64,000 nt of DNA, taken from a phage. Shown in pieces: positions 28,935-51,226 of this stretch. A program made the position numbers and the translations under genes. The notes beneath the pieces were generated by a model. The model was not told where the DNA came from, searched no databases, and was given only the letters and a program-made list of their open reading frames with translations. The stretch lies in the sequence record NC_135728.1, one strand, 5' to 3'. The first letter of the stretch is position 1; each line of letters opens with the position of its first letter.

Positions 28935-31900
28935 TTAGTCGTGAGACTCGTTCCAAGGTCCTTGGAAACTAGAGTTAGAACGGCTTACCACAACAGTAGG
29001 ACAGGATATTGCGACCCCTGTTACAGAAGACGTTGACCATGGTGTGTAGATTTCAACAACAATATCTATGGTTTGTTCACCAAGACCTGTTATCCCTACC
29101 GCACACATGCCGTTGTTGTCGTTTCCGTACTTCTTACCTGCAAGGATTTGATGTCCGGCTATCCAAACGTTGAGCTGGGAGCTGGCAAGAGTACCATTCA
29201 GTTTAAAGAAGAATGTTACGTTCTTACCCTGACCTGAAACGTTATCTACATATCTCCACCTCCAACGGCAAACCCTTTGCTGGGAGTTATATACTGGAGC
29301 ACAATCCCCGTAAGTCCTGTGTGCAACTATTGCACCTTCGAACTGGTTAGCACGGATAACAGAAGCTTCTACACGACCACGGAATGTACCTCCGGTTGCA
29401 TCTATGGTGCCTCTAAAGCTACCATTATTGGCATAAACATCCCCACGGAAGGTACCACTAGTGGCGTTAACTGCCCCTGTGAAGTTACCAGAACTGGCGT
29501 TGATGTTGCCTTTCACCCACACATCCATAAATTGGGCGTGCCCGTTCTTGTTAATATACCAACCGTATTGATGGTACCCGTTACCATCGTAGTTGTTTGA
29601 CGAAATTTCTTGTGCGATCTTGGCAGAGGAGATCGTGCCATTCTCTATAAAAGCGTCTTTCAAGAACGCTTGGTTGTTCTTGATTGCGAAAGCAAGGGTT
29701 GCTGTTCCATTTCCAGGGTTGTATACCGCAAAATTGTTTGCACTAACCATGAAGTAGGATTGAACTTGTCCTCCAGACCCCTCCATGCCCAGCTGGATAC
29801 CTGCAACATATTTATTACCATGGCTGTCAACCTGAATCTTAGCTCCCCACTGAGCATCTATTTTACCCTCAAGTGTTGTTACAGCTTTAGAGGTATTAGA
29901 TACTGTAGCCCTGAGCTCATCAATATTACCCATTTCGTCAACAATTTCTTGTTTTGCAGAGGTAAGTTCTTGACGGATCGCTGTGGCTGTATTATTAACA
30001 AGATCAACTGTTGTACTATTAGTTTCTTGAATAGATGCTTGCAGATTGGCAACCTCTTTCTGCACATCATCTTCCAGCTTGGTGATCTTCCCTGTAGCTG
30101 CCACCAGATCCTGCTTAATAGCTTCCGTTGTCTTATTTAGCAGATCGGTTGTTGCCTTGTTGGTTTCTTGAATAGAGGAGTTAAGTTTGCTCTCAGTGTT
30201 CTTCAACTCTTCCCGCAGAGTACCTTGAGTTGCAGTTATTTGCTCACTCAATGCTTGAGTTTTACGATTAACAAGATCAACGGTTGATCTATTTGTTGTC
30301 TCGATTAGTGACCCAAGCCTACCAGACTCTGCTGCAAGTTTATCGTCAAAGGATTGCTGAGCTGCTACCAGCTTACTGTTAAGGGCAGAAATTTCTCCAT
30401 TAACCCCTGTAAATTTTTCTGTCGTCTCTCTGACAACACCCTCTATTGTATCCCCAAGCTCTTCAAAAATGCTAGTAACACGGTCATTGACTGCACCAAC
30501 ATTTTTATCCATTTCCTTGACTGCATTATCAAGATTGGCGGTAAGCTCTTTATAAGTCTCTGTCTTTTTGAACTCAGCATCAATCTGTGGCATAAGATCT
30601 TCTATGGATGTGTAACAGTGGGCTGCACACTCCATAAAAGCAGATGAACCAAAAGCATTTGTTGTCCTGATATACCAGTAATAAATCTTATCGTTCTGCA
30701 GACCTTCAGATGTCCAAGTTGAACCAACACCCATACGAGTGGCTTTTGAAGTAACTGTTACATCACTGGTATCTGGCAATCTTGTCATCCCAGATGTCCA
30801 AAAGTCGTACTGGGTGCTTACACTAGCCAAGTCTCTGCTGTGCGGGATCAGGGTAATAGCAAAGTATCCCTGCTTAACCTCTACAGAAACAGGAGCTTCA
30901 GGTGCCTGAATGTTGAACTCGCAGTACGCTTCTGGAGATACACCACCTTTATAAGATGTTGCAACCACGGTTGCTGTGTATGATCCTTTGGTCAAGCCTT
31001 CTACTCGGACAAACTGCTCAACTGTCTGTGCTGTCCAAACAATCTCTCCGTTCTTTCTTACCTGCACAATATTTTGAGCGTAAGTTCCAACGTTGTCCCA
31101 AGCCAAAACACCGTGAGTTACTTCCCCGGCTTGGAGAACGGAATATCTGAAGTTTTGCGGTTGAGCTACACCAGATGGAGATATCGGAATATCTACATCA
31201 CCAGAATCCGGAAGTTGCCCTGTGGCATCATTCCACTCTTTAGCATCTTGACGAAGTTTTACCTTGACACCGCCCTTTTTGGTGAACTCCCATTCAAGAA
31301 CCCTCATTTCTTGGCCTACTATACCAATACTTGGAAGGTCCATTGTAACGTAACGGCCAGGTTTAAATTTAAAACCTCGCATATTGCAGGTGACTTCAAT
31401 AATCCTGCCAGCTCTAGCACGTCTTAAGAAGATTGCAGAAACACGCTGAGCTTGATAAGGACTGGTAACAAAGCGATAGTCTATATCAATTATCTTTCTT
31501 TCTCCATCCTTCTCTATCCACTCTGGGACAAACACTGATGGAAAATCTGTTTCAGAATACCCTTTGGTCGGACTAGTGAATCTGCCAGTTATTGTGTTGG
31601 ATCTCTTGTCAAAGGAGGCTTCCGGATAGATCTTGACCTCACCACAGACACAATCCTCACTCAGTGTCATTGTTGCTGGGCCATAGTATGCACCAACCAG
31701 CAAACCATACTTACCAGCAACATAACTAAGGTCTGCACCGCAAGCTTTCAGCATTTCTGCCATAATACTTGCTGGGGCCTCATCCATGTCAAACTCACCG
31801 TTAATGGTGTAACGTCGCTCACTGGTTCCGTCAGCGTTTTTTACCGCCTCGTCGCATATATTGGCAGCCTCCCTAAAGGACTCCCAGTTGATGGTTTCGT

Positions 31901-32534
31901 CAGGACATTTAAGGTACGTTCTTAAATAGTCCAGGATCACCAAGGCTGCGTTATTGGTGTACACCTCTTTACTGATGCGAGGATCATAGCATTTTTTACC
32001 AACCTTGACGAGTGTAACGTTTGGCAACCCAAAAGGAAACTTGTTAGGGTCAAACTTGAAACTGGCACGTAGCCAACTGATCCCTCTACCTATCATGTCG
32101 GGTGACCATGATGGGCAGTGTGTACCCATGAAAGGATCAGATGTTTTTCTGTCGTTATGTAGCTCCCACGATACCAGATCTCCATACGAGGAAATAGGAT
32201 TACCGTCGATGAGTATGTCTTCTATACCTTCCAGAGGATGATTAGCAAGAACAATGGCACAATGGAGGGTTCTGTCTCTGTCCTGCTCCAAAAACGCAAG
32301 CAGCCCAGACGTGCGTGTCTTCCCATACACTACAGAGCAGGGTGCAGCAGAAGATCTGAGAAGCTTTTGTCTATCTTGCTGACTTCTGTAAGATTTGTTG
32401 CCCTCAAAAATCTTATCCAGAGTTCTGGTGGTAACAGTGTTCAGGCTGTCAGCCAGAGCTGCCTTGGATGCGTTCCAGTCATAACTTGAAGATCTTGCAG
32501 AAGCAACGATGTTATCAATCATTGCAATTGGCAT
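28935..32534 (-). CDS. central tail fibre/host-specificity protein, lambda J-like (1199 aa)
   Basis: Architecture and local sequence reminiscent of lambda gpJ (e.g. KIYYWYIRTTNAFGSSAFME versus lambda DYYFYIRSVNTVGKSAFVE, recalled from memory); coiled-coil repeats; C-terminal receptor region. Confidence 0.65.
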   Translation of the reverse strand: MPIAMIDNIVASARSSSYDWNASKAALADSLNTVTTRTLDKIFEGNKSYRSQQDRQKLLRSSAAPCSVVYGKTRTSGLLAFLEQDRDRTLHCAIVLANHPLEGIEDILIDGNPISSYGDLVSWELHNDRKTSDPFMGTHCPSWSPDMIGRGISWLRASFKFDPNKFPFGLPNVTLVKVGKKCYDPRISKEVYTNNAALVILDYLRTYLKCPDETINWESFREAANICDEAVKNADGTSERRYTINGEFDMDEAPASIMAEMLKACGADLSYVAGKYGLLVGAYYGPATMTLSEDCVCGEVKIYPEASFDKRSNTITGRFTSPTKGYSETDFPSVFVPEWIEKDGERKIIDIDYRFVTSPYQAQRVSAIFLRRARAGRIIEVTCNMRGFKFKPGRYVTMDLPSIGIVGQEMRVLEWEFTKKGGVKVKLRQDAKEWNDATGQLPDSGDVDIPISPSGVAQPQNFRYSVLQAGEVTHGVLAWDNVGTYAQNIVQVRKNGEIVWTAQTVEQFVRVEGLTKGSYTATVVATSYKGGVSPEAYCEFNIQAPEAPVSVEVKQGYFAITLIPHSRDLASVSTQYDFWTSGMTRLPDTSDVTVTSKATRMGVGSTWTSEGLQNDKIYYWYIRTTNAFGSSAFMECAAHCYTSIEDLMPQIDAEFKKTETYKELTANLDNAVKEMDKNVGAVNDRVTSIFEELGDTIEGVVRETTEKFTGVNGEISALNSKLVAAQQSFDDKLAAESGRLGSLIETTNRSTVDLVNRKTQALSEQITATQGTLREELKNTESKLNSSIQETNKATTDLLNKTTEAIKQDLVAATGKITKLEDDVQKEVANLQASIQETNSTTVDLVNNTATAIRQELTSAKQEIVDEMGNIDELRATVSNTSKAVTTLEGKIDAQWGAKIQVDSHGNKYVAGIQLGMEGSGGQVQSYFMVSANNFAVYNPGNGTATLAFAIKNNQAFLKDAFIENGTISSAKIAQEISSNNYDGNGYHQYGWYINKNGHAQFMDVWVKGNINASSGNFTGAVNATSGTFRGDVYANNGSFRGTIDATGGTFRGRVEASVIRANQFEGAIVAHRTYGDCAPVYNSQQRVCRWRWRYVDNVSGQGKNVTFFFKLNGTLASSQLNVWIAGHQILAGKKYGNDNNGMCAVGITGLGEQTIDIVVEIYTPWSTSSVTGVAISCPTVVVSRSNSSFQGPWNESHD

Positions 32535-32971
32535 TAATACCTCCAGACATCAACAACGATAGAATCTTTCATGTCGAACATAAAGACCCCTTTATCACCT
32601 TTCGCCCAAATCTGGTTGTTCCAGAACACACCAGCGGTGAGCCCGTTCAGACCTTCGAAAATGACAATATCTCCACGCTGAACCTGTTTAGGAGTATCCA
32701 GCCGAGTCATAAAGAGATCAAAAATAGTAGGCAGGTGTGTGGTTTTGAAACGGAGCATGCACCATCTTTTGCTTTCCAACTCTGTTTTATACGTTCCTTC
32801 GAAGTTAGAAAGAAAATCTGTTCCGTACTGGGCATCAACACACTTAGCTGCAAAGGTGCAACAATCGTGGAATCCCCATTCAAAAGGTATGGTGGCCTCT
32901 TCGTCAAACACTTTCCACAATCTTTCTTGCCAATCCACTAAACGAGGGTGTGTGCTCATTAAACCTCCCAA
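32534..32971 (-). CDS. tail-associated protein, possible NlpC/P60-like peptidase (145 aa)
   Basis: HDCCTF Cys-containing motif; position immediately upstream of the J-like gene as for lambda gpK. Confidence 0.4.
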   Translation of the reverse strand: MGGLMSTHPRLVDWQERLWKVFDEEATIPFEWGFHDCCTFAAKCVDAQYGTDFLSNFEGTYKTELESKRWCMLRFKTTHLPTIFDLFMTRLDTPKQVQRGDIVIFEGLNGLTAGVFWNNQIWAKGDKGVFMFDMKDSIVVDVWRY

Positions 32972-33525
32972 ATGATCGGGCGGCTCGCCACCTGATCCAC
33001 ATATTTAAAAAATCTGTCATTATCGTTTCTTGAGCTGTGGCTTTCCTCCGTGTACCTATAAGGAAAACCTCTTAACCAACTGTTGAAGATGGAAGAGATG
33101 GATATGGACAAAGCACTATTCTCACCTGTCTGAATAGCCATATCTGTTATAAGGCCGTCAAACAAGCCATTAGTTGTAACAGGCAGACCATTCTCCATAG
33201 CGGTAATGTACAACGTGGCACGACAACCAGAATACTCCGTCTTCAGCAGATCACCAACATACTTAGGATCAAACCCGTTCAATGTTGCTACCACAGATCC
33301 GAAGTTGGTGGCATCTTTCTCAGACACAGCAGTTAATGTTGCTGATCCACCTATCCCTATAAAATGTTGCCCCTCAATTACTACAACACCAGTGCCTGAG
33401 CACACCCTGACAGTTCCTGTCGGTAGCTCCAGCTTTGCAGCAATTAAGATCTCAACACCATCAAGCTCCAGCTTTTCAAGAAATAAATTATCTAATGGCG
33501 CTCTGATCATCTTAGAAATCCTCAA
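32959..33525 (-). CDS. minor tail protein (188 aa)
   Basis: Overlapping start/stop with neighbours; positional call. Confidence 0.4.
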   Translation of the reverse strand: MRISKMIRAPLDNLFLEKLELDGVEILIAAKLELPTGTVRVCSGTGVVVIEGQHFIGIGGSATLTAVSEKDATNFGSVVATLNGFDPKYVGDLLKTEYSGCRATLYITAMENGLPVTTNGLFDGLITDMAIQTGENSALSISISSIFNSWLRGFPYRYTEESHSSRNDNDRFFKYVDQVASRPIIWEV

Positions 33526-34102
33526 AGAAGTTGATAACTATATTATCACCTTTTTGCATAGCATCGACTTTTTGCTTAATTTTATAAATATCTCTGATAT
33601 GAAACCTACCCTTTGGGGATTGAGTTATTATCTTCATAGTATCCCCTGCGGCAATAGGTTTCCTAAGTCTTGGAGATATGCTTATAACAGCAGCCCCAAC
33701 ACCATCGCTGCGTACTGGAGCTGTTACTACTTTCAACTCATCGTTCACAGATATTTTATCACCAGCTCTGGCTATGTCTCTGTTTGGCTCCCACCCGACC
33801 GTCTTCAAAAAATCGTCGTTACCAGTAGGCCCAAGAGCGATTGGCTCATTAGCTGTTACCGAGTGACCGTAAGTTTTAATGAGAAATATGTTCCCATCTT
33901 TATATACCTGATCAACAAAGCTCTTAAGCTCTAACAACTGTGACTCGCTGATATTGGAAACCGTCAAAGTGCCTTTCCAGTTAGGTGTGGCATAGGTTAC
34001 TTTTTGCGTTTTACCTGTAAACGGACTTTTAAACGTAACAATATCTGCTAGCAGCTCCAATCTAATATCTGGAAGGTATCTAGGCCTTTCCCATAAAAAC
34101 AT
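33512..34102 (-). CDS. minor tail protein (196 aa)
   Basis: Positional call. Confidence 0.4.
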   Translation of the reverse strand: MFLWERPRYLPDIRLELLADIVTFKSPFTGKTQKVTYATPNWKGTLTVSNISESQLLELKSFVDQVYKDGNIFLIKTYGHSVTANEPIALGPTGNDDFLKTVGWEPNRDIARAGDKISVNDELKVVTAPVRSDGVGAAVISISPRLRKPIAAGDTMKIITQSPKGRFHIRDIYKIKQKVDAMQKGDNIVINFFEDF

Positions 34103-34133: not shown

Positions 34134-34162
34134 ATTTTACCAGATTTTAAGTTAATACGCAA
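34134..34162 (-). promoter_or_regulatory. sigma70-like promoter with extended -10 (TTGCGT-N14-TGGTAAAATA)
   Basis: Shares the TGGTAAAATA motif; sits between a terminator and the gene start at 34102. Confidence 0.45.
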
Positions 34163-34165
34163 TAT

Positions 34166-34194
34166 AAACAAAAAGCCCCCGCCGAAGCGAGGGC
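34166..34194 (-). terminator. intrinsic terminator, GCCCUCGC-UUCG-GCGGGGGC hairpin plus U-run
   Basis: Third copy of the UUCG-tetraloop terminator motif. Confidence 0.55.
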
Positions 34195-34199: not shown

Positions 34200-34532
34200 T
34201 TAAAATACTTCCAAGGTAGACGCTGGAGGGTCGAACATGTTCAATTTCATCGACTCTACAACTTTTCCGCTTTTTGAGATAATGTTTTCTGCACCTTCGT
34301 CCAGAGTTAAAACATTAACATAAAACAATTCGCTTTTCTCACAAACAGGATAGACAACCATGTTGCCAAACTCATCTTCTGCCTCATAGGTATCTCCCGT
34401 CTCTGTGTAAACAAAGCCAGCAACCTCTACAAGAAGTGTGTTTTGCAACACCTCATTTTCGTAAAAGCCGATTTCATCCATGAAACCGTTGAAGTCCTCC
34501 CTGTCAGTGAACCCGAGGGTAAAGGTATTCAT
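34200..34532 (-). CDS. hypothetical protein (110 aa)
   Basis: ATGA-coupled to the 1479-aa gene. Confidence 0.45.
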   Translation of the reverse strand: MNTFTLGFTDREDFNGFMDEIGFYENEVLQNTLLVEVAGFVYTETGDTYEAEDEFGNMVVYPVCEKSELFYVNVLTLDEGAENIISKSGKVVESMKLNMFDPPASTLEVF

Positions 34533-37500
34533 TATTCAACACTCTCCATCATAAGTTGGGTATCTGTCAGCGCAGAGTTCCAAACTCTTATGTCCTTAAT
34601 ATGACCAAACAAATGTCTTTCTCCTGTTGCCGTTTGACCACCGATACGGATGAAAGCTCCTCCTGCCAGGAACTCCCAAGAAGACTGTGTTTCAGTGCTC
34701 ACCAGTCCGTTAGCAAAAGAGCAAGTTTTACCGTCTTCTTTTATCCTGAACCCCATCTTCAGTTTACGCGCTTTAGCCATCTCGTAGACACGTCTGTTTG
34801 ACCCTCCAATATCGCAGTATGGATACCCATCCTCTGCAATATTTGTTGCAGAACCAAACCCGAGAATAAAAGCTGCGCTCGTCTGGTGTCCTTCTGTGTC
34901 TATAACCCTAGGGGCTGCGTTAGGAGCTTTGCCCCAACCTCTCCAGTTAGCATCCACAGTAGCGGCGATAGTGAACGGTCTAGGTGCTAAGTTATCCGTC
35001 ATCGGGAATTTGCAAAGGTCTGCCGCTCTAGTTACAGGTGAAGATCCTGTGGGAATAAACGAGGACTCGCAAGAACCTAACTCAAATTGAGGTATTGCAA
35101 CATCAACCCAATCCCCTACAACATGCTGAGCACCTTCAGGTGGAGAAATCTGGAACTGGCACCCGATATTCTTGTCAGAGGCCACTGCCTCAAACGTAGC
35201 GGCAATCCTTACCCAAGCAGGTCCGGCTGTTTGCCATCTCTCAGCTTTTACTTTAATTCTCCCAGCTGCACCACCTGTTGTTTTAACTTCAAGTGTTGAC
35301 AGGTTAACATAAGCGTCACCTTGGAATACTGTGGTGGATCCGTCATACATGTCGAATCTTACACGTAATCTCTGGTTCGCTTTACCTCCCCTTGCAATAA
35401 TAGACCCAGTACAGAATTTCTCAGCACCTGTCACATCGGCACCTCTGGTGGCTGGAACTGTAGCAAGGTTTAACGCTGTTGTTTCCACACCGGATGCAGT
35501 GTTTACTGTAAATCTTGCACCTTTTGTGCCGTTGGTGTTTGTTACAGTACCACCAACAGTAATCTGTTGACTGGCTCCCCATTTACTAGGGTCTTCACTG
35601 TTAAGCATTAGGTTTGTCCTTTGCCCTTCAATAAGCAGACCATCTCTTTCAAACCGAGGATGATCGTTCTGAGCAGTAACCATCACACCGCGTTTAGAAA
35701 AGTATGTTGCTGTAGAAGGTCTGGAGAATACCATCTCTCCCTCACCAAGTGCAGGTTTTAAGTTGGAGGTCAAAGGTAACCAAAGATCAGGCATAACTGG
35801 GGCGGTTGTGCTTTCCGGGAAGCTTGTTCTCTTCCAAGGACTCCAAGCCATTCCACTACCAGTGTTATTATAATACCTTTCCCATGTTCCACCAAGGTAC
35901 ATCTTGTAGATCTGAATACAGCCCGTGCCCTCGTTAGCAGAGTTTCTAAGCACAATCAGCGTACCAGCCATCTGCTGTCCAGGCGGGTAATGTCTTTCAG
36001 CTGTAGCGTTAGCATTCGCCTCTTGATGGTAGATACCTTCACGATCTGCTTTATAATCGTTAAGGTCGCTATTCCCCAGTCCTTGACCACGGTGCTGAAT
36101 AACCTTGTTCCACGCTCTGTGATTTCCCTGCTCTATGGAACGGGTATATAGCTGATCTAATCGACCTGCTATCTGGAAAGCATAGTTCCCAGAGAATGCC
36201 ACAGACAACCCGCCAACAACCATCGAACCTTCAGGCCCGTTAACATTACCAGCCATTATTTTAGAAGGGTTGTTATTCCCGAACTGGTTGTTCCAGTCTG
36301 CACCTGTGTGGCATACAAAACCACCAGGAGCTGAGAAAGTGCCATCTTTGTTGAAGTTGTAGAATCTATGGGATGAACCAACAACATCTCTAACAATGAC
36401 CTGACCAGCCTCTGGGGTAGACCTGAACTCTGCCTGACCTTTGAGACCAGCACCATTACCGCATTTAGAGGTAAATGTACCGTTAGTTAAGTCCTCTGTC
36501 CCATCTGATGCACACTGGAATCCTGCATTAGAGAATAAAGCCTTTCTAGGGCTGCCGTAGCACAAATAGTCAAGACCGTCTGCCCATAGCTCGACTTTTG
36601 GCATATTCATTTTGCTCATCACAGCATAGCGTTCAGCAGTGCCTATATAGTGCCACTGTGTACCGCCGCCAGTGTAGAATCCAGAGGTACCTTTGAAGTC
36701 AACAATAGGTCTGGTGTTGGTATTGTTATCTCCAAGAACAGCAAGATTCAAATCTGCCGACTGGAGAGGTGCAACAAACTTAACCCCGTCCTGATTGTTT
36801 GTTACAGAACCAACCTGGTAGTCTTGTTCTTTGGTAAACACCTCTAAAACATTTCTACTTGCGTATATGCTGACAGGGAAAGCACGCGCCTCTGCATAGA
36901 AAGCAACATATTCTTGTTTACCCCTTGTTGGAGCAACCATCCCAAGAATTGCTTTTTCATTCTGGTAGAAATTTACTACTCCGTAGAAAGAGTCCCCTCT
37001 ATCTGTCCACCCACCAGTTCTATAATGACACTGTAAGGTAGCACAGTTCATGGGGTCACCACCAGATGACGACCTAGTAACTATGGTAATATCGGTGCCA
37101 GTAGCTGGAGCATAATACGGATCTGTTCTAACTATAATTGGGTAGTATTTCCCATCTTCCATCCCTGCGGTTCTTGGCAGCGTTAAGAAATCTTTTACGC
37201 CTGCAGCTATAGGAACTCTAAACAGATTCTGAGCCTCTGCCAAAGTTGTAGCCCCAGTACCACCTGCGGCTTGCGGTAAAGGTTCCCACTTGGCCTTCCG
37301 GTTGTTATAAACACCCCATTCCAGAGTGCCGTTACCGGATTCATCCATCCCGCCATCCCAGATGACCATCTTGGCGGCTTTCTTGGATCCCCAGAAGCCT
37401 CTTTCTGCTCCTGAACTACGGATCCACTCTCCGAGTCCCCAGTTTGTCAGCTGACCAGTAAGATCCCCAACCTGCATGTATTTAGGGCAGTCTAGCACGC

Positions 37501-38971: not shown

Positions 38972-39006
38972 TCTTTCTCCTGAAAGGGGGCAAACAGCCC
39001 CCTATG

Positions 39007-41604: not shown

Positions 41605-41605
41605 C

Positions 41606-42283: not shown

Positions 42284-43000
42284 TTAGTTAACATCAATAG
42301 CACGACCAGACTGGTTGGCAATAGCCTCATCATTGGAGGTAGCAATAACACCAGAGTATTCGCGCTCATCTGGAGCAAGCGTCCAGGTATTGCGGTTAAT
42401 GGTTTGTTCTGCCTCAGTCATCAGCAGATCTTTATCCTGAGTCAACAGAGAGCCTACAGGGATCGGGTTTTCCATCTCAGGACCAGCATACTGGTTCCAC
42501 CATGTGGCATCTCCGGTTCTAGGCAATCTGAAGTTAATCAGGTAGTACAGTTTATTAGCCCACTTAATCCAACCTTCATCATCACAGAGAGAGGTTGTCC
42601 CAGAATCAGGCTGTGGGTAGGTAAACTGATCAAGACCTACGAAAGCCAGCCTTACAATCTCGTTCTCTTTGGTAACAACCTCAAAGAACGCTTGGTATGT
42701 TCTCGATCTTCGATCCATAGTAGACTGGAAGTTTATGATGTTTAGCACATCCGGCTCTTGTCTTGCCACTTCCATGATCTTGTTATCAAGAACAGTCTTC
42801 ATGACCTTCTTACTGAGAAAGTCCATATAAGGGAAGCCAAACAACTCGTCAAAGTACCAGCTCCCCTTCCACGTATTAAACCTCATCCACAAGCGCTGGC
42901 GCAGACTTACCTGGTTTGAATCTATCAACTCAAGACCTTTGTCTATCGCCAAATCGCCTGTCTGTGGGTCCATCAATATATCACTATAAAGCGTAGCCAT
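42284..43000 (-). CDS. baseplate protein (238 aa)
   Basis: Positional call. Confidence 0.4.
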   Translation of the reverse strand: MATLYSDILMDPQTGDLAIDKGLELIDSNQVSLRQRLWMRFNTWKGSWYFDELFGFPYMDFLSKKVMKTVLDNKIMEVARQEPDVLNIINFQSTMDRRSRTYQAFFEVVTKENEIVRLAFVGLDQFTYPQPDSGTTSLCDDEGWIKWANKLYYLINFRLPRTGDATWWNQYAGPEMENPIPVGSLLTQDKDLLMTEAEQTINRNTWTLAPDEREYSGVIATSNDEAIANQSGRAIDVN

Positions 43001-43012: not shown

Positions 43013-43690
43013 TTAGTGCGGTCCACTTGTCTCGCCATCAGGGCAAGAGTGGGTATGACCTTTATATTCTGCATAGAATGAATCCAAATCCACACCAGCA
43101 GCAGTTATAATTCTACCAGATGGGTCTATTGTGGCACCATTCATTCTGATATTTCCATCCACAGCAGCTCGCAAATTGGCAGCACCGTTAGTGAAAGAGA
43201 ACTCCCCGCTGCTGTCGCACCGTAATGTCCCACCAGGTGTTTGAAGCTCAAAATCGCCAGAAGGTGTCAGTTTAAAATAAACCCTATCATTCCATAACTC
43301 TACGTTATCAGGATCGATCTGTAAAGCGTTCGAGTCTGAATGAACAGAGGTGATTGCCCACCCAGGAAACAGGCCGTGAGTTTGTTGATCATCGTTATTG
43401 TTTTCATTTCTCTCTGAAAACTGCAATCCTACAACATCTCCAGCCTTAATAGGAAGTGTTAACCTTGCCTTTCCGCTGTTTGCAGACATCACCTGAATTG
43501 GAACGTCATAGATAAGAGGGTATCTCTCTACATCCCCGTCATCAAACGTAGTTTCAGCTATTGGCTGCACGGCTGCAGAAGGTATACTGTAGTCTACACT
43601 GACAACCCTGGCCCTGATACTGGTGTGGTAGTCCCTCATTATTTTTTCTATAAAAGATCTTACAGCAGCATCTTTCCTATTTATTGCCAT
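43013..43690 (-). CDS. baseplate central spike protein (gpV/gp5-like) with metal-binding apex (225 aa)
   Basis: C-terminal His/Cys cluster YKGHTHSCPDGETSGPH resembles the spike-tip metal site of contractile-tail spikes. Confidence 0.5.
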   Translation of the reverse strand: MAINRKDAAVRSFIEKIMRDYHTSIRARVVSVDYSIPSAAVQPIAETTFDDGDVERYPLIYDVPIQVMSANSGKARLTLPIKAGDVVGLQFSERNENNNDDQQTHGLFPGWAITSVHSDSNALQIDPDNVELWNDRVYFKLTPSGDFELQTPGGTLRCDSSGEFSFTNGAANLRAAVDGNIRMNGATIDPSGRIITAAGVDLDSFYAEYKGHTHSCPDGETSGPH

Positions 43691-44694
43691 TATACCTCCT
43701 CAGTTTTGTCAACAACTCCACCCACTGTTTCCCCAAGGCCAAGCTCTGTAGTGTAATCACCACCTTCTATGGTGCCCTTATGATGCACCGTGATCACCTT
43801 ATAGAAGCCTGTATATTGCTTGCTTTTAAGATAAATAGTGGACTCTGGGAGGATAGCTCCGTTAAGGCATGTGGTTACAGTAAGGCCAACATCCTCTCTC
43901 GGGTTTTTCTTTTTCTTTTTAGATGTCGAACCACCTTTGGCAGCAGCTTTAGCTCTTCGTTTTTTAGCAGGTTCTGGGTTTTTAGGAGTAGGAGATCCGT
44001 GCATCCCAGACTCTGCACTTATTTCAAACACAGAGTCCTTGAACCTTTTTCCAACCTTGGTCCAATACAAAGCCCCATCCTGAACGCTAAATGTTGAGTT
44101 GGTCAGCCTTGCAAACCTGCGGAGGTTCTCTGCAGTGTTTCCAGAGAAAGCCATAGAGTATTGCAAAGTCTGGTTTCCAAAACCAACAACCCTACCCTTT
44201 GGCAAGTTCATATCCTTCAGTAGGTCATTAAGCACAGAGTTCAGAGGTGTGCCTTTCTGATAAGATCTTGTGCTTTGGCACTTAATGATGTTCTCAGTGC
44301 CATCCCCAAAGATGAACTTAGTTTTTCTGGTCGGACCTTCCCATCTGTCTTCAACAAACTCCACAGTTCCGGAGAATATCAACTGGTTCTCATTATCATA
44401 GCCAGCTTCAAACATAACTGCAAGGGCATCAGCCTGATGCATATCCAAATAGTTAACTGTATCGTCAGACAGGTTGTAAACTGTCACATAACCTTTGTTT
44501 GGCTCTTTGGTATTGTCCTTTTGTATGTCAAACTCTATATTGGCAGCACCAGTGTCCGAGCTAACTTCATAAACTCCGGAATCACTCTCCCCTTTCTTTT
44601 CAACAGATTTTGGGATATTGGTTTTTGATTTGCCGCCATGTTCTACAGGACGACCAAACAATAATCGCCATGTTCTACGTCTGTACTCTGCCAT
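43690..44694 (-). CDS. baseplate/tail protein with Lys-rich segment (334 aa)
   Basis: ATGA coupling; internal KKRRAKAAAKGGSTSKKKKK tract. Confidence 0.45.
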   Translation of the reverse strand: MAEYRRRTWRLLFGRPVEHGGKSKTNIPKSVEKKGESDSGVYEVSSDTGAANIEFDIQKDNTKEPNKGYVTVYNLSDDTVNYLDMHQADALAVMFEAGYDNENQLIFSGTVEFVEDRWEGPTRKTKFIFGDGTENIIKCQSTRSYQKGTPLNSVLNDLLKDMNLPKGRVVGFGNQTLQYSMAFSGNTAENLRRFARLTNSTFSVQDGALYWTKVGKRFKDSVFEISAESGMHGSPTPKNPEPAKKRRAKAAAKGGSTSKKKKKNPREDVGLTVTTCLNGAILPESTIYLKSKQYTGFYKVITVHHKGTIEGGDYTTELGLGETVGGVVDKTEEV

Positions 44695-45074
44695 TATTCT
44701 AACCCTTGCTGTTCCTTGTAAAGATCAACCGGGGTGCCGTATACAAGCTGTAGCTCAGATCTCGCCCCAAGGTTATATCTTCCAACCCTGCCCCAATATT
44801 GATCGTCTTTAAACGACAGCGCCATCAGTCTACCTTTCGGTAAATCATCTCTGTAATGCAGTCCGTCTAAAATATCTTGACAAGCTGTTACTTTTCTGGT
44901 TACTAAAGGGCTGTCACCTACTGGACCAAGAGATAACCACCAGGACTCATCCCTCTCATTCCATTGCATACGCATTTCATACGTTTCATTGTCTAAAACA
45001 ACACGCATGGTTTGATCAGGAAAGCCATCAATGTCCCACACAAAAGTGATTACACACCAATCTTTAAGCTCCAT
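44694..45074 (-). CDS. tail protein (126 aa)
   Basis: ATGA-coupled. Confidence 0.4.
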   Translation of the reverse strand: MELKDWCVITFVWDIDGFPDQTMRVVLDNETYEMRMQWNERDESWWLSLGPVGDSPLVTRKVTACQDILDGLHYRDDLPKGRLMALSFKDDQYWGRVGRYNLGARSELQLVYGTPVDLYKEQQGLE

Positions 45075-45085: not shown

Positions 45086-45997
45086 TTATTTTCCGTTAAC
45101 TTTGTCGTAGTTTCCCTGCTCTGACGGAACTATAGTGGAAGGTCTTCCATATTCCTGATAGTACCAATCGGCAGCGGACTGGGTAACACCGTTTTCATCT
45201 GTCCACATCATAGACTTGTATGGCTGCCACTCTTCTGCAGCATTTGTGGATGCAGTGTCTGCAAATGCCCCTGTATCTCTCTTGTTACCTACATTACTAC
45301 CATTCTTACAATCGTTGACAGCACCTTTTTGCTGGGTCTTCCCAACTTTTTTAGGATTGCTGTACACTGTTGCATTAACAACTTTGTTCAAGTAAAATGT
45401 GCGGAATTCTGTAAGTTCTACATCAAACACCATTGCAGCTCCTTCACCAACAGACTTGTTGGCAGAAAGGCTGGTTATGATATAGTTCTCAAGGAGTCTC
45501 TCCTCGGTAACCAAGGAAACCAACTGTCGCTTATTGATAATCTCAGTCAAAGCCTCCAATGCAGCTCCTGGTCTCATAGATGCTGCAGGGTTTTTAGAGT
45601 CAGTATTCCTATCAATGTAGTTTTGCTCATAAATTATATGTGGGGATGTATTTACCCTGCCAGTAAAAGAAAATACACCATCTTTAATTACAGCGTGGTC
45701 TGACATGGTAGATTTATCTTCCACTGCAAAACCAGTTTTATCAACAGAATGTTTGAAAGAATAGTTCTCAACCTGGTCGAAGATAATGGCAAGATCGTTA
45801 GTAAAGTTTTTACCCTTCATCTCCGTATTGCGACCACCATAGTTAAGACCGCTGACAAACATAGTGTACTTTACATCACCTTCAGTTTGCTGCTCAGCCT
45901 TTTCAGCCTTTGGAGACTTAACCTCTTGAGGCTTGTACAGATCTTTTTCATCAACTATATTATTTGGCATAACCTCTCCAGGACACTCCGATACCAT
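45086..45997 (-). CDS. tail protein (303 aa)
   Basis: Immediately downstream of the tape measure gene; an alternative start with GGAGAGG RBS lies near 45970. Confidence 0.45.
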   Translation of the reverse strand: MVSECPGEVMPNNIVDEKDLYKPQEVKSPKAEKAEQQTEGDVKYTMFVSGLNYGGRNTEMKGKNFTNDLAIIFDQVENYSFKHSVDKTGFAVEDKSTMSDHAVIKDGVFSFTGRVNTSPHIIYEQNYIDRNTDSKNPAASMRPGAALEALTEIINKRQLVSLVTEERLLENYIITSLSANKSVGEGAAMVFDVELTEFRTFYLNKVVNATVYSNPKKVGKTQQKGAVNDCKNGSNVGNKRDTGAFADTASTNAAEEWQPYKSMMWTDENGVTQSAADWYYQEYGRPSTIVPSEQGNYDKVNGK

Positions 45998-46074: not shown

Positions 46075-48414
46075 TTACCAAAGATCTGTTGACATAAAGT
46101 TAATATCTTTGCTATTCTCCCACTCAAGTTTTGCATCAAGTATTTTGCTAAACTCACCTTCATCTATAGAAATGGTGATTTTACCATCGCTGATCTCCAA
46201 AGGTAACATTTCCATGGTTCTCAGTTGAGAGGCAAAACCAGGGCCACCAGGTAGCGGAAGGGTTCCACCAGGTAAAGTGTCTAGAGGATTAACAAACCCG
46301 TTGCCACCCGATACTATATCTTTGCGGATCATGTCACTAATAGTATCCAGCTGTTGATTTCTCTCACTGAAAGGGTTGAAACGATCATTAACCATAGCCC
46401 CAGCACTCAATAATGTCCCAAGTATCCCCAACTTACCTAACATACCGGTACCTTTGATGCCTGGTGCTTTTATTCCACCACCTTTTCCTGCTGCGCCACC
46501 TACAGAACCCCCTGTGGTGATGGCACCAGCGCCAGCAGCTCCAGCTGCACCTTTCAGGGTGCTAAGGAACTTAAAAGTTTTTACAAGCATGGATGCCATG
46601 ACAAACCCTTTTGTAAGAGCGTGCACTACCAGCATAATGGCAGCAGCATACCCTGCCCATTTGGCAGTGCTGAAGGTGTCATGCAGCTCTTCGGAATACT
46701 CCTTCGTCTTAGCTGTTATGAACCCCCATTTGATGCCCCACTCAAGGAAAAACAGGCGGATCTTAACTATAGTGTTGTTTAGCTCACCAACAACCCAGTT
46801 AAGGCCTCTAATAAATCCGCTAACAAAATCACCTGAGGCATCCCACACAAATTGCAGAGTCTCACCTGTGCGGATCAAGGTGTAGTAGAACTCTGTCAAT
46901 TCATCTGCCCAACGGGTGAACAGTTTCTGACGAGACAGTTCTATGAAGGTTTTCAGTCTGTTTTCTGCCAGTACGTTAGACTTCTGCATTCTTTCATAAC
47001 CAGCTGCAGATGCCTCGTTCATGTACTTAGCCACATACTTCATGATCTTAGCTGTTTTAACCTCACCTTTCTTCATCATATCCATGAACTGATCCATGGA
47101 GAGTTCAGAAAGACCAAAAGCCTCTTTGGTGGCCTTGATAAAAGGTTCGTATGCACCAGGTAATGCTTCAGCAAGTTGTTGCTTCAGTTCTTCGGACATT
47201 ACTTGTCCCTTGCCTAGCATCTGTTGGATTGCCATGATACCACGCTGGTATTTTACCTCATCGGCACCATAAGCAGCAGCATACTGGGAGTATGCAGAGA
47301 ACAGCTCATGAACCTCCTGATTTGTCATCTGGTTTTTGGCGTTTACCGCCATCTGGGCGTAACCTTGAAGACCAGATTTGAGATCAAAACCAAGACGCAT
47401 AGCCTCTTGCTGGACAAACGCAACCTCACTGTTGGCTTTGTTTGGATCTCCAGTAACAGCAGTAAGAGCAGCACTTGCACCCTCCATCATGTGACCGGAT
47501 CTGTTAACAGCAGTAAATCCAGAAAAAGCCGTATACGCAGCTGTTGCATTAATAACAGATCTACGTAAGTCTCTCATGGCATCGCCTAGTGTAAGCGTTT
47601 GGTTGGTGGCGCTTTTAAACCCAGACTGCAGCGCTGACAGGTGGGCGTTAAAGGTTGACTTCTTCATCTCCCCGCGAGCAAACCTGGACTCTAACTCTGA
47701 GTATCCTGGCAAGCTTCCACGGAATCCGGCCCCATACTTGGCAGAAAGTCTTATCGCGGAGTTGTAGAGGTGGGTTCTCCTTGCCTCACGATCCGACATA
47801 AGCTTATTATCCATACCAGCTTTACTGTCTCTTCTTAGCTGTCTATGATAACGATTCATAGCGGCTGTCTGAGCTTTCACAAGGTTAGGGTCGGAAGCCA
47901 CACCACCCATATTAGGGTTACCGGGGATATATTTGAAAGATTTGGCATTAGCCAAAACTCTTGCCTTAGGTGCCTTATAACCACCGTAAGACACTGGTGC
48001 AGATTTGGCAGCCTTTTTGGCCTCTTTAGCTTGCTGCTGGTAGAACTTACGCATCCTAGCCATTTCTGGATTTTTAGCGGTAAGATTACCTACAGCTTGT
48101 TTACGTCTCGCATTCTCCCTACGTTCTATTGCAGCCCTTACTGCAGCCTCTTTCTTGGCCTGTGCTACGCTCTCTCTGTGCAGTTTAGCATTTGCCTGAG
48201 ATTGCTGTCTGGCAACCCTCTGCATTGTCTGCTGGGTTTTAACAGCTACCGCCTGCCATCTACTCATGGGGTTGGCTGAGTTAAAATCCTCGCCCAGTTT
48301 CCTGAACTCCCTCCCAATACTGCGAATTTTCTCTACAGCTTTTTTGTAGGAGGAGTTCTCTATCTCAAAGCCAATCTTGTTGACTGTTGTGGCAACTATT
48401 TTGTTTGTAGCCAT
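46075..48414 (-). CDS. tail tape measure protein (779 aa)
   Basis: Long helical, Ala/Gln/Lys-rich protein with C-terminal Gly-rich hydrophobic segment (GAAGAAGAGAITTGGSVGGAAGKGGG); sits after the tail chaperones. Confidence 0.7.
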   Translation of the reverse strand: MATNKIVATTVNKIGFEIENSSYKKAVEKIRSIGREFRKLGEDFNSANPMSRWQAVAVKTQQTMQRVARQQSQANAKLHRESVAQAKKEAAVRAAIERRENARRKQAVGNLTAKNPEMARMRKFYQQQAKEAKKAAKSAPVSYGGYKAPKARVLANAKSFKYIPGNPNMGGVASDPNLVKAQTAAMNRYHRQLRRDSKAGMDNKLMSDREARRTHLYNSAIRLSAKYGAGFRGSLPGYSELESRFARGEMKKSTFNAHLSALQSGFKSATNQTLTLGDAMRDLRRSVINATAAYTAFSGFTAVNRSGHMMEGASAALTAVTGDPNKANSEVAFVQQEAMRLGFDLKSGLQGYAQMAVNAKNQMTNQEVHELFSAYSQYAAAYGADEVKYQRGIMAIQQMLGKGQVMSEELKQQLAEALPGAYEPFIKATKEAFGLSELSMDQFMDMMKKGEVKTAKIMKYVAKYMNEASAAGYERMQKSNVLAENRLKTFIELSRQKLFTRWADELTEFYYTLIRTGETLQFVWDASGDFVSGFIRGLNWVVGELNNTIVKIRLFFLEWGIKWGFITAKTKEYSEELHDTFSTAKWAGYAAAIMLVVHALTKGFVMASMLVKTFKFLSTLKGAAGAAGAGAITTGGSVGGAAGKGGGIKAPGIKGTGMLGKLGILGTLLSAGAMVNDRFNPFSERNQQLDTISDMIRKDIVSGGNGFVNPLDTLPGGTLPLPGGPGFASQLRTMEMLPLEISDGKITISIDEGEFSKILDAKLEWENSKDINFMSTDLW

Positions 48415-48717: not shown

Positions 48718-48728
48718 AACAACCTTGC

Positions 48729-49202
48729 TTATTCCTGCTCTTCCGGAGTCTGATCCAGGTTGTTCACCTGCTGAATCATACCCATCTGCTGTAACATCTC
48801 CAGAAGGCTTCCTAAACCGTCTTGTGTGAAAAAACAGCCGTAGTTAACCTCCAGAACCTTACCTGCCAGCTTAATCATCTCCAGCAGATGCCCTGCAAAC
48901 ACAACATCTGGGTTAAGCTTATCCACACCATCTACGGTAATATCTTCGAACAAGATTTTAAATAACTCTTCAATAGAGCTATCATCAAGTTCTTGGAACA
49001 GGTAAGCCAGGGCAGTAGGAAGGACCTCTGCCATATTCTGACCGCCTGAGATAATAGATCCACCGATAGCACCTAGCGGAACAGCCACAATCTTACCGAT
49101 TTTAGGCATGTTTTTCATTGCTTTCATCGGTCCCCAGTGGGTGATCACAAAGTTGTGCCCTGCTAAATCAATCTCTGTTGTAGGTCTAAAGTTTATAGCC
49201 AT
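48729..49202 (-). CDS. tail assembly chaperone (G-like, 157 aa)
   Basis: Position between tube-like and tape measure genes; contains the heptamer T_TTT_TTC about 35 codons before its stop. Confidence 0.55.
   Translation of the reverse strand: MAINFRPTTEIDLAGHNFVITHWGPMKAMKNMPKIGKIVAVPLGAIGGSIISGGQNMAEVLPTALAYLFQELDDSSIEELFKILFEDITVDGVDKLNPDVVFAGHLLEMIKLAGKVLEVNYGCFFTQDGLGSLLEMLQQMGMIQQVNNLDQTPEEQE
48828..48834 (-). other. candidate -1 programmed ribosomal frameshift site (U_UUU_UUC)
   Basis: In-frame slippery heptamer in the chaperone ORF; the -1 frame is open from here through 48469. Confidence 0.45.
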
Positions 49203-49245
49203 TTTATAGCATCCTTATTAGTCATGTTGTGCACCATATTTGTGT

Positions 49246-49274: not shown

Positions 49275-49310
49275 TTTAACCTTTCAAGCAATTCAAGAAC
49301 GTGTGTCAAA

Positions 49311-49347
49311 ACCATAAAAAGCAAAAAGCCCCACCCTAAGGTGAGGC
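49311..49347 (-). terminator. intrinsic terminator after the tube-like gene
   Basis: 8-bp GC-rich stem (GCCUCACC/GGUGGGGC) with 4-nt loop, then CUUUUUGCUUUUUAUGG. Confidence 0.6.
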
Positions 49348-49365
49348 TTATGCTAAAGTGTGCCC

Positions 49366-49839
49366 TTAGATAATACCTGCAAGACCTGCGAGGCCAGTGA
49401 GAGCACCAGTAATGTTATCACGGTTGAGCCATGCATCCAGAATACCGATATCCCAGTCCAGTTGACCTACTTCGGTTCCGTAAGTCAGGTCTGGTTGTTT
49501 CTGGATCCAACCGATTGTGGAAATACCAGGGCCCTGGCTACCTTCCAGCAGAACCGGGAAGAATACCAGGCCAGTAATCGATGCCTGTTTCTGCCAGTCA
49601 GAGAGGTAAGCGTTCCATACTGAAGTGTTCTGCAAAGACACAGTCATGACACCAGATTGGTTACGGGACAGAGCCGCAGACATTTCACCATCCACACCGA
49701 CGTGAGGATAAATGTTGTCTTCGTTTCTTGAAACAACAATCTTGGTGTCAGCAGCGAAGCCAGTGACACGCTGCTGCATCAGATACAGTTTGACCTTTTT
49801 AGGGTCATACGCATAAGGAGTTAAAATTTGAGTTTCCAT
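49366..49839 (-). CDS. tail tube protein (putative, 157 aa)
   Basis: Size and position between sheath-like and chaperone genes; no sequence motif verified. Confidence 0.4.
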   Translation of the reverse strand: METQILTPYAYDPKKVKLYLMQQRVTGFAADTKIVVSRNEDNIYPHVGVDGEMSAALSRNQSGVMTVSLQNTSVWNAYLSDWQKQASITGLVFFPVLLEGSQGPGISTIGWIQKQPDLTYGTEVGQLDWDIGILDAWLNRDNITGALTGLAGLAGII

Positions 49840-49849
49840 CTAGGCTTCC

Positions 49850-51226
49850 TTATTCAGTCATTGCAACAGCATTGGTGGATTTAGAACCAACTTTGTCCAG
49901 AAGGACGTTGATCCGGATACGAACGAAGTGCAGGGCGTTATTATACACCAGTTCTACTTTCACACCTTCCAGAACACGAGCAGCCAACTGATTGGTTGGG
50001 ATTTCTGCACGTTTAGGAACTGTGATGATCGGGTCGTAGAATACATTATTGTCTTCGTCGAAACCTGTCAGGATCGCACCATTCTTAATGCCAGTGTTGA
50101 TTGGGTTGTTCATCAGGACAGACTTGATAACCGGAAGATCATCATCAGACATCTTCATGCTCAGACCCATATTAGATCGGCGATGCATGTATCCAAACAT
50201 AGACTCTTCGGATCTGAATTTAATCCAGTGGGCGAAGCGGATAGCATCTGCATACTGACCAGAAGCACATTTACCTTCCCAGAAAGCACCAACACCGTTG
50301 ATTGTTCTGTAGAAGTTAATGTTGTTCTCCCAAATCGCCATGCGCTGGGTCAAGGTCAGGGATGGTGCAAGAACACCAGGCATCTGTTTTAAGTGTAAGC
50401 TGTCGCCGTAGGACGGATCGTTGGATGCCATAGCACCGATAATACCGCCCTCTGGGAAGTCTTTGTCGGCGCGAGGGTCGTACATACCAATACTGTCATA
50501 TTTTGCAGCTTTCAGTTTAGTGGCAATGTTGCTGTCTTTGCCAGTCACATCTTCTGCAGTAGAGTAGACATGCAGTTTGTAGTTAGCCTGAGCCCACTTA
50601 GCACATGCTTCAATATCTGTGTGGTCTTCATGGCACAAGAAGTACCAATTATCCTGCTCAGCGTTGATCTTGTCGATCACGGTAGAAGGTTTTTCACTAT
50701 TGGCAATGTTTTTGATCGTATAATTACCAGTATGATAACCAACAGTACAATCACCAGTGATGGTGATAACACCTTCGTCTGCCTGCACGGTGATACCGTC
50801 TAAGCTATCATCAGCCTCAATTTTTTCCTTCATTGCCTCTGCGATCTGAGTTGCCCCTGTTCCACCAGAGATAGGGACTATCAAGGCAGTATTGTAGTCA
50901 CCTTTTGCAATAGTCATTACGACATCGGTATCAGCTGCGGCAGCAATACCTTTAAAATCTACAGTGGTCTTTTCTTTGGCCTGTCTGCCGATCATAACGT
51001 ATTGTGGAGGGAATACACCACCAAAAGCTTTTGCTGCAAACTCATACGCTGCAGAGCCTTGTGCGAAACCATCTTCCACCATCTGATCCAGCTCCGCATA
51101 TACGCGAGCTCGCTCAGTAAAGTTATTGTGGATAGCGATGAACAGGGGAGTTTCGAAACCTACAGTGTCAATAGGCTGGGTTCCGAGGTTAACTGTAACA
51201 TCTACCACTTTATCTAAATATGGCAT
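49850..51226 (-). CDS. tail sheath protein (putative; alternatively major tail protein, 458 aa)
   Basis: Size, position after neck proteins, codon usage of a highly expressed gene; call is positional. Confidence 0.45.
   Translation of the reverse strand: MPYLDKVVDVTVNLGTQPIDTVGFETPLFIAIHNNFTERARVYAELDQMVEDGFAQGSAAYEFAAKAFGGVFPPQYVMIGRQAKEKTTVDFKGIAAAADTDVVMTIAKGDYNTALIVPISGGTGATQIAEAMKEKIEADDSLDGITVQADEGVITITGDCTVGYHTGNYTIKNIANSEKPSTVIDKINAEQDNWYFLCHEDHTDIEACAKWAQANYKLHVYSTAEDVTGKDSNIATKLKAAKYDSIGMYDPRADKDFPEGGIIGAMASNDPSYGDSLHLKQMPGVLAPSLTLTQRMAIWENNINFYRTINGVGAFWEGKCASGQYADAIRFAHWIKFRSEESMFGYMHRRSNMGLSMKMSDDDLPVIKSVLMNNPINTGIKNGAILTGFDEDNNVFYDPIITVPKRAEIPTNQLAARVLEGVKVELVYNNALHFVRIRINVLLDKVGSKSTNAVAMTE

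Follow-up and report, generated by a model that had tools for sequence, protein, structure and literature searches.

A collinear siphovirus-type tail-tip gene cassette within the contractile-tail module of a Vequintavirus coliphage

In the tail tips of the siphoviruses lambda and T1 the hub is split between two proteins, gpL and gpJ in the former and gp36 and gp33 in the latter, and the lumen of the lambda-like tip cone houses the C-terminus of the tape measure together with a separate insertion protein (PMC11945409). A related gene set occurs in the siphovirus JenP2 (Nonagvirus, Queuovirinae), in the RefSeq record of which the tape measure is followed in order by gp17 (196 amino acids (aa), annotated 'distal tail protein'), gp18 (194 aa), gp19 (DUF6950, 138 aa) and gp20 (874 aa, 'central tail fiber J'). 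The solved baseplates of phiTE and phi92, related contractile-tailed phages of Vequintavirinae type, have their tail axis occupied by the same hub and spike proteins that are encoded in the DNA considered here, and the phi92 paper names no J-like protein among its fibre candidates. In the window analysed here, a stretch of 64,000 nucleotides of phage DNA (NC_135728.1), homology and collinearity show a four-gene cassette at 28935-34102 that corresponds to a complete siphovirus tail-tip gene set, located inside the tail and baseplate module of a myovirus. Part of this has been visible for some time. The rV5 orthologue of the largest cassette protein, gp37, has had a public match to COG4733 and to gp27-like proteins since 2013 (PMC3606486), the RefSeq annotation already reads 'central tail fiber J' and RBPseg has described one Vequintavirinae fibre with an N-terminal region 'common in central tail fibers' (PMC12143355), while which gene makes which of the many rV5-like fibres is unresolved (PMC8594841). 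Literature searches found no description in Vequintavirus of the full cassette of distal tail protein (Dit), hub piece, DUF6950 protein and J, of its restriction to the genus or of the lost hydrophobic N-terminus of J. Already on public record are the phage itself, the proteins of its sheath, tube and spike, and the annotation of the 1199-aa protein as J-like.

The block at 28935-51226 (22,292 bases) encodes the tail and baseplate of a Vequintavirus, an rV5-like contractile-tailed coliphage. In a GenBank search it was 95.7% identical in DNA over its full length to Escherichia phage JLBYU08 and at least 95% identical to dozens of further rV5-like phages, with 112 records covering at least 80% of the 22.3-kb query. 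The taxonomy of CarlMeissner, a well-annotated relative, reads Vequintavirinae, Vequintavirus, and the near-identical DNA over the structural module places the phage of the window in that genus. Every gene of the block lies on the minus strand, each with an open reading frame (ORF) at the coordinates given below, and ordinary, well-annotated Vequintavirus tail machinery makes up most of it. The cassette at its downstream end consists of four tightly packed genes (196, 188, 145 and 1199 aa), with neighbouring ORFs overlapping by 1-14 bases:

33512..34102, minus strand: cassette gene 1, Dit homologue, 196 aa (32% identity to JenP2 gp17 over the full length; PHROG distal tail protein, 4e-50)
32959..33525, minus strand: cassette gene 2, free-standing N-terminal hub piece, 188 aa, or 183 aa by the rV5 start (38% identity to JenP2 gp18)
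32534..32971, minus strand: cassette gene 3, DUF6950 protein of NlpC/P60 fold in the position of lambda gpK, 145 aa, 141 aa in rV5 (Pfam DUF6950, 3e-33)
28935..32534, minus strand: cassette gene 4, J-type hub and central fibre protein, 1199 aa (matches to lambda gpJ, PDB, Pfam and PHROG)

Gene by gene, the cassette matches the siphovirus set that follows the tape measure, namely distal tail protein, N-terminal hub piece, DUF6950 protein and J. The nearest relatives are found in the Queuovirinae at 32-59% identity. Against JenP2 gp17-gp20 the gene order is the same, the lengths are near (196, 194, 138 and 874 aa in JenP2 versus 196, 188, 145 and 1199 aa in the window) and whole-protein identities range over 32-54% (32%, 38%, 46% and 49-54% in turn), rising to 58.7% in the J hub region of Seuratvirus; the C-terminus of gp23 and gp24 are also held in common (see below). 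The same order was found directly past the tape measure on a metagenomic contig reached via the J N-terminus and in five more siphoviruses, with Klebsiella, Vibrio (two phages), Pseudomonas and Roseobacter hosts, and also in Acinetobacter phage IME_AB3, in which one 904-aa gene is inserted past the first gene, such that the cassette directly follows the tape measure in six of the seven siphovirus comparators. In Queuovirinae the cassette stands in that position and closes a non-contractile tube, whereas in the window it has signals of its own and is encoded in a myovirus with a sheath gene, ten genes away from the tape measure (46075-48414). The original prediction had proposed modular exchange from a lambda J-like protein and an NlpC/P60-like neighbour; exchange is supported and extends beyond this pair to the collinear four-gene cassette, no part of which was found in two sister lineages. 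The prediction had also called the combination with contractile-tail proteins unusual. J and a contractile tail do coexist here, yet the combination is fixed genus-wide, in 116-117 records, with an annotation as J-like that is not new.

The resemblance of the 1199-aa protein to lambda gpJ, as first predicted, is agreed upon by several searches. BLASTP against lambda gpJ gave E values of 8e-17 and 9e-17 over J 667-836 and 858-990 at approximately 30% identity, the PDB chain 8iyk_J matched with E 5e-27, Pfam gave Phage_Tail_Tip (9e-39), Ig_J_second (1e-29) and Ig_J, and PHROG gave 'central tail fiber J' (6e-164). The protein comprises a hydrophilic N-terminus (residues 1-58), a hub region (approximately 60-435), Ig/FN3-like domains (approximately 450-655), a coiled coil (approximately 655-875), a tail-tip domain (878-1017) and a genus-specific tip of the last 160 aa; it thus holds the hub, Ig/FN3 and tail-tip domains of a lambda-like J. 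An AlphaFold2 model of residues 1-500 was confident over approximately 60-435 and matched the folds of T5/DT57C pb3, lambda J, T1 J, the gene transfer agent (GTA) hub, Chi and JBD30 (E 4e-23 to 7e-14), the hub protein pb3 of T5/DT57C being the best structural match of the J N-terminus (query-normalised TM-score 0.62-0.65). Compared with JenP2 J, the hub, Ig-like and tail-tip domains are retained in full length, whereas the coiled coil is approximately 150 residues longer, the C-terminal tip is different and the N-terminus is hydrophilic.

The difference at the N-terminus separates the genus from its relatives. Every complete siphovirus or prophage J homologue inspected starts with a hydrophobic Gly/Ala-rich segment of approximately 40 residues, with a hydropathy of 1.5-2.5 and 0-5 charged residues among the first 45, whereas the J N-terminus in Vequintavirus has a best 19-residue Kyte-Doolittle value of 0.3-0.4 and nine charged residues among the first 45. 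The Vequintavirus N-termini align with the siphovirus copies ungapped and retain the initial MP.A motif, with the segment itself hydrophilic. No hydrophobic lumenal or membrane-active element, either as a gpI gene or as a hydrophobic J N-terminus, was found in the cassette. We infer that the hydrophobic N-terminus had a lumenal or membrane-active function that would no longer be needed in Vequintavirus. The idea that the hydrophobic segment of siphovirus J is a fused gpI was tried and rejected; homology to gpI is not claimed, since Pfam Lambda_tail_I matched none of the J N-termini; one of them gave a weak glycine-zipper match (E 0.02).

For the small cassette proteins single-sequence searches of the PDB with the 196-, 188- and 145-aa proteins returned nothing relevant, and it was family profiles alone that succeeded. 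The best profile matches for both the 196- and the 188-aa families lie in T5/DT57C, with the Dit protein (pb9) for the former and the hub protein pb3 for the latter. For the 196-aa family the top PDB match was DT57C Dit with a borderline E value of 0.027, and this match, together with PHROG and orthology to annotated Dit genes, makes the protein a likely distal tail protein. For the 188-aa protein a word-index search gave only three near-identical proteins, and an exhaustive representative search was used instead. The resulting 71-sequence profile matched the N-terminus of DT57C and T5 pb3 (residues 18-179; E 6e-7 and 4e-5), and PF09931, 'Baseplate hub protein, N-terminal attachment domain', was detected in 10 of the 71 members. 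By profile comparison the 188-aa protein is the predicted counterpart of T5 pb3 residues approximately 18-180 and of lambda gpL. Since it corresponds to the N-terminus of pb3 and the J N-terminus corresponds to the hub, the hub would be divided over two chains, an arrangement described for lambda and T1 and unlike that of pb3, which is one chain. No conserved Cys columns of a gpL-type iron-sulphur domain were seen in alignments of the 188-aa family, and the two Cys of the window copy are both unconserved.

An NlpC/P60-like protein had been predicted just before J, and the 145-aa DUF6950 protein, encoded directly upstream, bears this out by its modelled fold. Its AlphaFold2 model (pLDDT 92) found NlpC/P60 proteins as 23 of the 24 best Foldseek matches in the PDB, including MepS, LytE and the non-catalytic RipD, and against MepS (E 3e-5, TM-score 0.58-0.66) it has the papain-like fold with a Cys at a helix N-terminus. 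Within the family a WGxxDC motif is invariant, including D36 and C37, and no His column is conserved among the 42 sequences, the canonical catalytic His of NlpC/P60 enzymes included. The column aligned by HMMER to the segment GRHVGIY of MepS, which we take to hold the catalytic His, is filled with Thr, Ser or other residues. The protein may as such be a non-catalytic assembly or structural protein. Lambda gpK also has an MPN/JAB domain; this domain is absent from the 145-aa protein, which further differs from gpK in that the catalytic His is not conserved.

The cassette resembles the lambda tip (gpM, gpL, gpK, gpI, gpJ) and the T1 tip in having a likely Dit ring protein, a small hub protein, a protein of NlpC/P60 fold ahead of J and, in J itself, a central fibre that carries Ig-like and tail-tip domains. 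It differs from lambda in that there is no separate gpI gene, no Lambda_tail_I match and no gpL-type conserved Cys. Searches of the small cassette proteins by phmmer against lambda gpM, gpL, gpK and gpI gave noise only, so that the link of these proteins to lambda is one of fold and gene order and not of pairwise sequence similarity. At permissive thresholds Pfam and NCBIfam gave no match for the 196- and 188-aa proteins or for a 110-aa protein encoded upstream of the cassette.

Expression signals are predicted on both sides of the cassette:

34175..34194, minus strand: strong terminator-like hairpin ending the upstream fibre operon, GCCCTCGC-TTCG-GCGGGGGC followed by a T run; corresponds to rV5 t041
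34134..34142, minus strand: promoter-like motif of the extended -10 type, TGGTAAAAT, ahead of the cassette; corresponds to the predicted rV5 P040 (supplementary Table S4)
28907..28928, minus strand: terminator-like hairpin closing the cassette past the J stop codon, AAGCCCCGC-TTCG-GCGGGGTTT followed by a T run
28863..28891, minus strand: sigma-70-like promoter for the wedge genes, TTGACT-17-TAAAAT with TG; corresponds to rV5 P036

Past TGGTAAAAT there is a ribosome-binding site followed by the ATG at 34102, and P040, t041 and P036 are all among the predictions of the rV5 authors (PMC3606486). A promoter-like site and bracketing terminator-like hairpins show the cassette as a predicted operon of its own.

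In a search of the phage collection the 188-aa protein and the J hub region are at least 95% identical in 116-117 records, all rV5-like, after which identity drops straight to less than 60%. Among the matches listed, every one outside Vequintavirus came from a phage without a sheath, Seuratvirus being closest (58.7%, J hub region). Two sister lineages, Seunavirus KE22 and UPEC06 (Vequintavirinae), were compared by tblastn over their structural regions, and neither had a match to the 110-, 196-, 188-, 145- or 1199-aa proteins. The core genes of tail and baseplate, in contrast, were all recovered from both lineages, at 32-85% identity and with their order unchanged. In UPEC06 the wedge genes directly follow the sheath-initiator gene, and in KE22 three fibre genes lie between them. 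In an unbootstrapped neighbour-joining tree of the hub region, Vequintavirus J stands beside Queuovirinae, within enterobacterial siphovirus and prophage sequences. Taken with the distribution, this tree leads us to infer that the Vequintavirus lineage acquired the cassette long ago, in a single event, from a Queuovirinae-like siphovirus. Eighteen MG0656xx records named 'Campylobacter phage' (host C. jejuni or Campylobacter) match E. coli rV5-like phages at approximately 95% identity across the entire 22 kb, which looks like mislabelling or contamination of these deposits.

Two divergent Vequintavirus contigs (L016 and L017) retain all four cassette genes. Between the window and these contigs synonymous sites are saturated, yet the 196-, 188- and 1199-aa proteins keep 83-89% aa identity, with the conservation of the 196- and 188-aa proteins on a par with that of core baseplate proteins; the 145-aa protein has diverged more quickly than the other three (57-60% aa identity). 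These comparisons show the cassette to be under strong purifying selection. The last 160 residues of J are at least 90% conserved in 114 of 117 records.

A J-related gene on a Salmonella enterica chromosome (L003/L004, 10001-12316) is 51% identical to J of the window over the aligned hub region. It adjoins an integrase gene and a gene with a Tox-PLDMTX toxin domain, has no Dit, hub or DUF6950 gene upstream and looks like a prophage remnant. J-related genes of this Salmonella P0044 type were considered as a clue to the donor and set aside, the locus being a prophage remnant that lacks the upstream cassette genes.

The injection machine of the phage is complete and of the Pam3/phiTE/phi92 type, with the following genes in the block and immediately past the cassette:

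49850..51226, minus strand: tail sheath, 458 aa (Pfam DUF3383; PHROG tail sheath 5e-118; phiTE 9cb9 E 2.7e-146; phi92 gp130 E 7.7e-50)
49366..49839, minus strand: tail tube, 157 aa (Pfam KPP10_Orf10 7e-9; PHROG virion structural protein; 'tail tube protein' in CarlMeissner)
48729..49202, minus strand: tail assembly chaperone, 157 aa (Pfam Phage_TAC_15 3e-23)
46075..48414, minus strand: tape measure, 779 aa (Pfam TMP_3 9e-19)
45086..45997, minus strand: tube initiator of the myovirus baseplate core, 303 aa (Pfam Dit_like 3e-22; 'tail tube initiator' in CarlMeissner)
44694..45074, minus strand: baseplate plug/spacer, 126 aa (Pfam Pam3_gp18 3e-18)
43690..44694, minus strand: central baseplate hub, 334 aa (PHROG baseplate hub 2e-83)
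43013..43690, minus strand: central spike with C-terminal HTH(SC) apex, 225 aa (PDB phiTE 9cuy_Y 5e-62; phi92 gp138 3pqi_A 2.5e-18)
42284..43000, minus strand: sheath initiator (gp25-like), 238 aa (PHROG baseplate wedge subunit; the L016 orthologue has Pfam Sheath_initiator)
27339..28829, minus strand: baseplate wedge 1 (gp6/Baseplate_J-like), 496 aa, where the myovirus baseplate genes resume past the insertion (Pfam Baseplate_J)

The pair of sheath-sized and tube-sized genes that had been noticed upstream of the chaperones is real, the 458-aa protein being the sheath and the 157-aa protein the tube, followed by the Phage_TAC_15 chaperone and the tape measure. The tube protein is 85% identical to its Seunavirus orthologue, the gene of which adjoins the Seunavirus sheath gene, and wedge 1 shares 60% identity with its orthologue in Seunavirus and 51% with that in UPEC06. 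An 82-aa ORF at 48469-48717 sits between the chaperone gene (48729-49202) and the tape-measure gene, the usual site of a frameshift-extended chaperone of the G/GT type. The proposed gpV/gp5-like spike with a His/Cys apex likewise held up, in that the 225-aa protein matches the phiTE and phi92 gp138 spikes and ends in GHTHSCPDG, with an HxH motif aligned as HTH; this motif coordinates iron in the phi92 spike (PMC13450770). By these matches the protein belongs to the phi92 gp138/phiTE puncture-apparatus spike family and is a predicted iron spike. Sheath, hub with HxH spike, and sheath initiator with wedge are all recognisable at the level of sequence. With phiTE and phi92 the phage shares its sheath and spike, the hub and plug, both initiators (of tube and of sheath) and the wedge proteins, whereas neither of these relatives has a modelled J-type protein or a cassette, and the 1199-aa protein has no PDB sequence match to their chains.

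In the explanation that we prefer, and consider probable as a whole, the tail is that of a Vequintavirus with an acquired siphovirus tip cassette serving as an added host-binding fibre. The contractile machine would inject the DNA, and the genus would have gathered accessory fibre genes between the sheath-initiator and wedge genes, including the self-contained four-gene operon from a Queuovirinae-like siphovirus. In a siphovirus the products of such an operon build the tail tip, with a Dit ring and a hub from the small N-terminal piece and the N-terminal third of J, accompanied by an assembly protein of NlpC/P60 fold, with the remainder of J extending as the central fibre. In Vequintavirus the cassette would give rise to a tip-like complex without a tube, carried on the periphery of the baseplate or on another fibre as an extra host-binding fibre. 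An off-axis position is proposed because the tail axis is already filled by the phage's own hub and spike, and the retained hub, Ig-like and tail-tip domains, the coiled coil longer by approximately 150 residues and the hydrophilic N-terminus together fit the loss of a channel or membrane role and the keeping of a fibre role. Peripheral location, adhesin function and the presence of the three small proteins in the virion would follow from these considerations. In its most specific form, with complexes of Dit ring, split hub and J fibre standing on the periphery of a contractile baseplate without tape measure or tube, the proposal is tentative and rather less probable than the account as a whole.

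The main rival holds that J alone enters the virion, as a trimeric side fibre anchored by its hub-like N-terminal domains, with the 196-, 188- and 145-aa proteins acting as assembly factors or chaperones that are not incorporated; we regard this as rather unlikely, and less probable than the preferred account. The faster evolution of the 145-aa protein (57-60% versus 83-89%) would suit it, and lambda gpK is needed for tail assembly and is not a modelled part of the tip. The 1199-aa orthologue of rV5, gp37, was detected in virions by mass spectrometry (MS), whereas gp38, gp39 and gp40, the counterparts of the small proteins, appear in the rV5 gene table as conserved hypothetical and lack the 'MS evidence' flag (PMC3606486); they may be assembly factors and not virion parts. 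Shotgun mass spectrometry, however, easily misses small low-copy proteins, the 196- and 188-aa proteins are as conserved as core baseplate proteins, and solved siphovirus tips contain both Dit and the small hub protein in stoichiometric amounts, as structural components that make up the full hub together with J (PMC11945409). Besides the MS record, several other points weigh against the preferred account. The Dit assignment stands on a borderline profile match (E 0.027) and orthology to Dit-annotated genes, the direction of transfer rests on distribution and a tree without bootstrap, and the J tip is conserved genus-wide, unlike the usual host-range determinant. No structure puts a J-like protein on any Vequintavirinae virion, and in the Vequintavirus phages Bas49 and Bas54 cryo-electron microscopy (cryo-EM) made out only three fibres close to the baseplate, the J-like class not being among those described as found (PMC12143355). 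A Keio screen with the rV5-like phage LL12 gave six genes that affected growth in total, with surface factors reported in the lipopolysaccharide (LPS) outer core only and no outer-membrane protein (PMC7229145), and therefore gives no sign that K-12 infection depends on the J fibre. The known primary receptor is NGR, the N4 glycan receptor, which had first been interpreted as the enterobacterial common antigen (ECA), and it is assigned to a different fibre.

The remaining alternatives concern whether the cassette has a function and where it would act. A decaying or selfish passenger without virion function is very improbable. Terminators on both sides give the cassette a moron-like look, its absence from two sister lineages means that it is dispensable for the basic tail and the LL12 screen yielded no receptor for it (PMC7229145), but the four reading frames are intact in 116-117 records, tightly packed and overlapping, 83-89% aa identity persists past synonymous saturation and the J orthologue is present in rV5 virions. 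About equally improbable is a true central fibre, with the J complex placed on the axis of the tail, either beyond the spike or, in some particles, in its stead. In its favour, all solved J-type proteins are central; against this, the hub and iron-loaded spike fill the axis in the solved phiTE and phi92 structures and the same genes are encoded here, the cassette lies ten genes from the tape measure as compared with zero or one inserted gene in siphoviruses, and the hydrophobic J N-terminal segment is lost. Least credible of all is the alternative offered by the original prediction, that the tail is non-contractile, with the 458-aa protein a siphovirus-type major tail protein rather than a sheath and J the true central fibre. 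Only the lambda-J-like protein and its NlpC/P60-like neighbour speak for it. It is refuted because the 458-aa protein is close to the solved contractile sheaths of phiTE (E 2.7e-146) and phi92 and the rV5 tail is contractile by electron microscopy, with a contracted sheath visible (PMC3606486). Sheath initiator, wedge proteins, central hub and iron spike are all encoded, and the sheath protein gp053 of the E. coli myovirus FV3 is reported to form polysheaths (PMC6357053). Profile searches returned a sheath for the 458-aa and a spike for the 225-aa protein, in place of the siphovirus major tail family and the non-spike family that had been named as the outcome contradicting a mosaic.

Further fibre genes lie between the cassette and the sheath-initiator gene:

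34532..42274, minus strand: three accessory fibre genes, 222, 865 and 1479 aa (Pfam Tail_spike_N anchor in the 222- and 1479-aa proteins)
34200..34532, minus strand: 110-aa partner of the 1479-aa fibre, JenP2 gp24 homologue (phmmer E 1e-8)

The C-terminal 420 aa of the 1479-aa fibre (residues 1060-1478) resemble the lateral fibre JenP2 gp23 (34% identity, BLASTP E 2e-59). This largest fibre gene has alternative alleles (window 34200-38971 versus L016 4961-8758 and L017 4924-8745): in rV5, L016 and L017 the protein has approximately 1270 aa, ends without a partner gene next to it and carries an intramolecular chaperone of the Peptidase_S74 type, whereas the window allele encodes 1479 aa and the 110-aa partner. 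The partner gene is absent where the Vequintavirus fibre has the Peptidase_S74 chaperone domain, as in L016 and L017, and the distal part of the fibre and its helper appear to be swapped as one. The 222-aa (41606-42274) and 1479-aa (34532-38971) proteins have their N-terminal approximately 100 residues in common, a Tail_spike_N domain with 38-39% identity (in CarlMeissner). Branched tailspike complexes are known to contain such a domain, and it may be a shared anchor of the accessory fibres. Beyond the block, a 690-aa protein encoded at 24569-26641 on the minus strand has Pfam NCTSP_N, a TIM barrel ('non-contractile tail sheath protein', E 4e-80) and Calx-beta domains. It is an N4 gp65-like glycan deacetylase fibre, tied in the literature to NGR, once read as ECA, and had no tblastn match in the structural regions of Seunavirus and UPEC06.

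Few coliphages are isolated as often as the rV5-like phages, which are also therapy candidates. If a complete siphovirus tip cassette is mounted in them as an accessory fibre, it would clearly exemplify how an entire multi-protein assembly can pass from one tail morphotype to another, in which a whole tail-tip organelle, beyond a fibre domain, has been turned from a gate of the DNA channel into an adhesin, with the loss of the hydrophobic J N-terminus as its marker. It would also offer a natural experiment on a Dit-hub-J complex that no longer gates a tube. Cryo-EM groups would gain a concrete model for unassigned baseplate density, and engineers a self-contained and possibly swappable operon.

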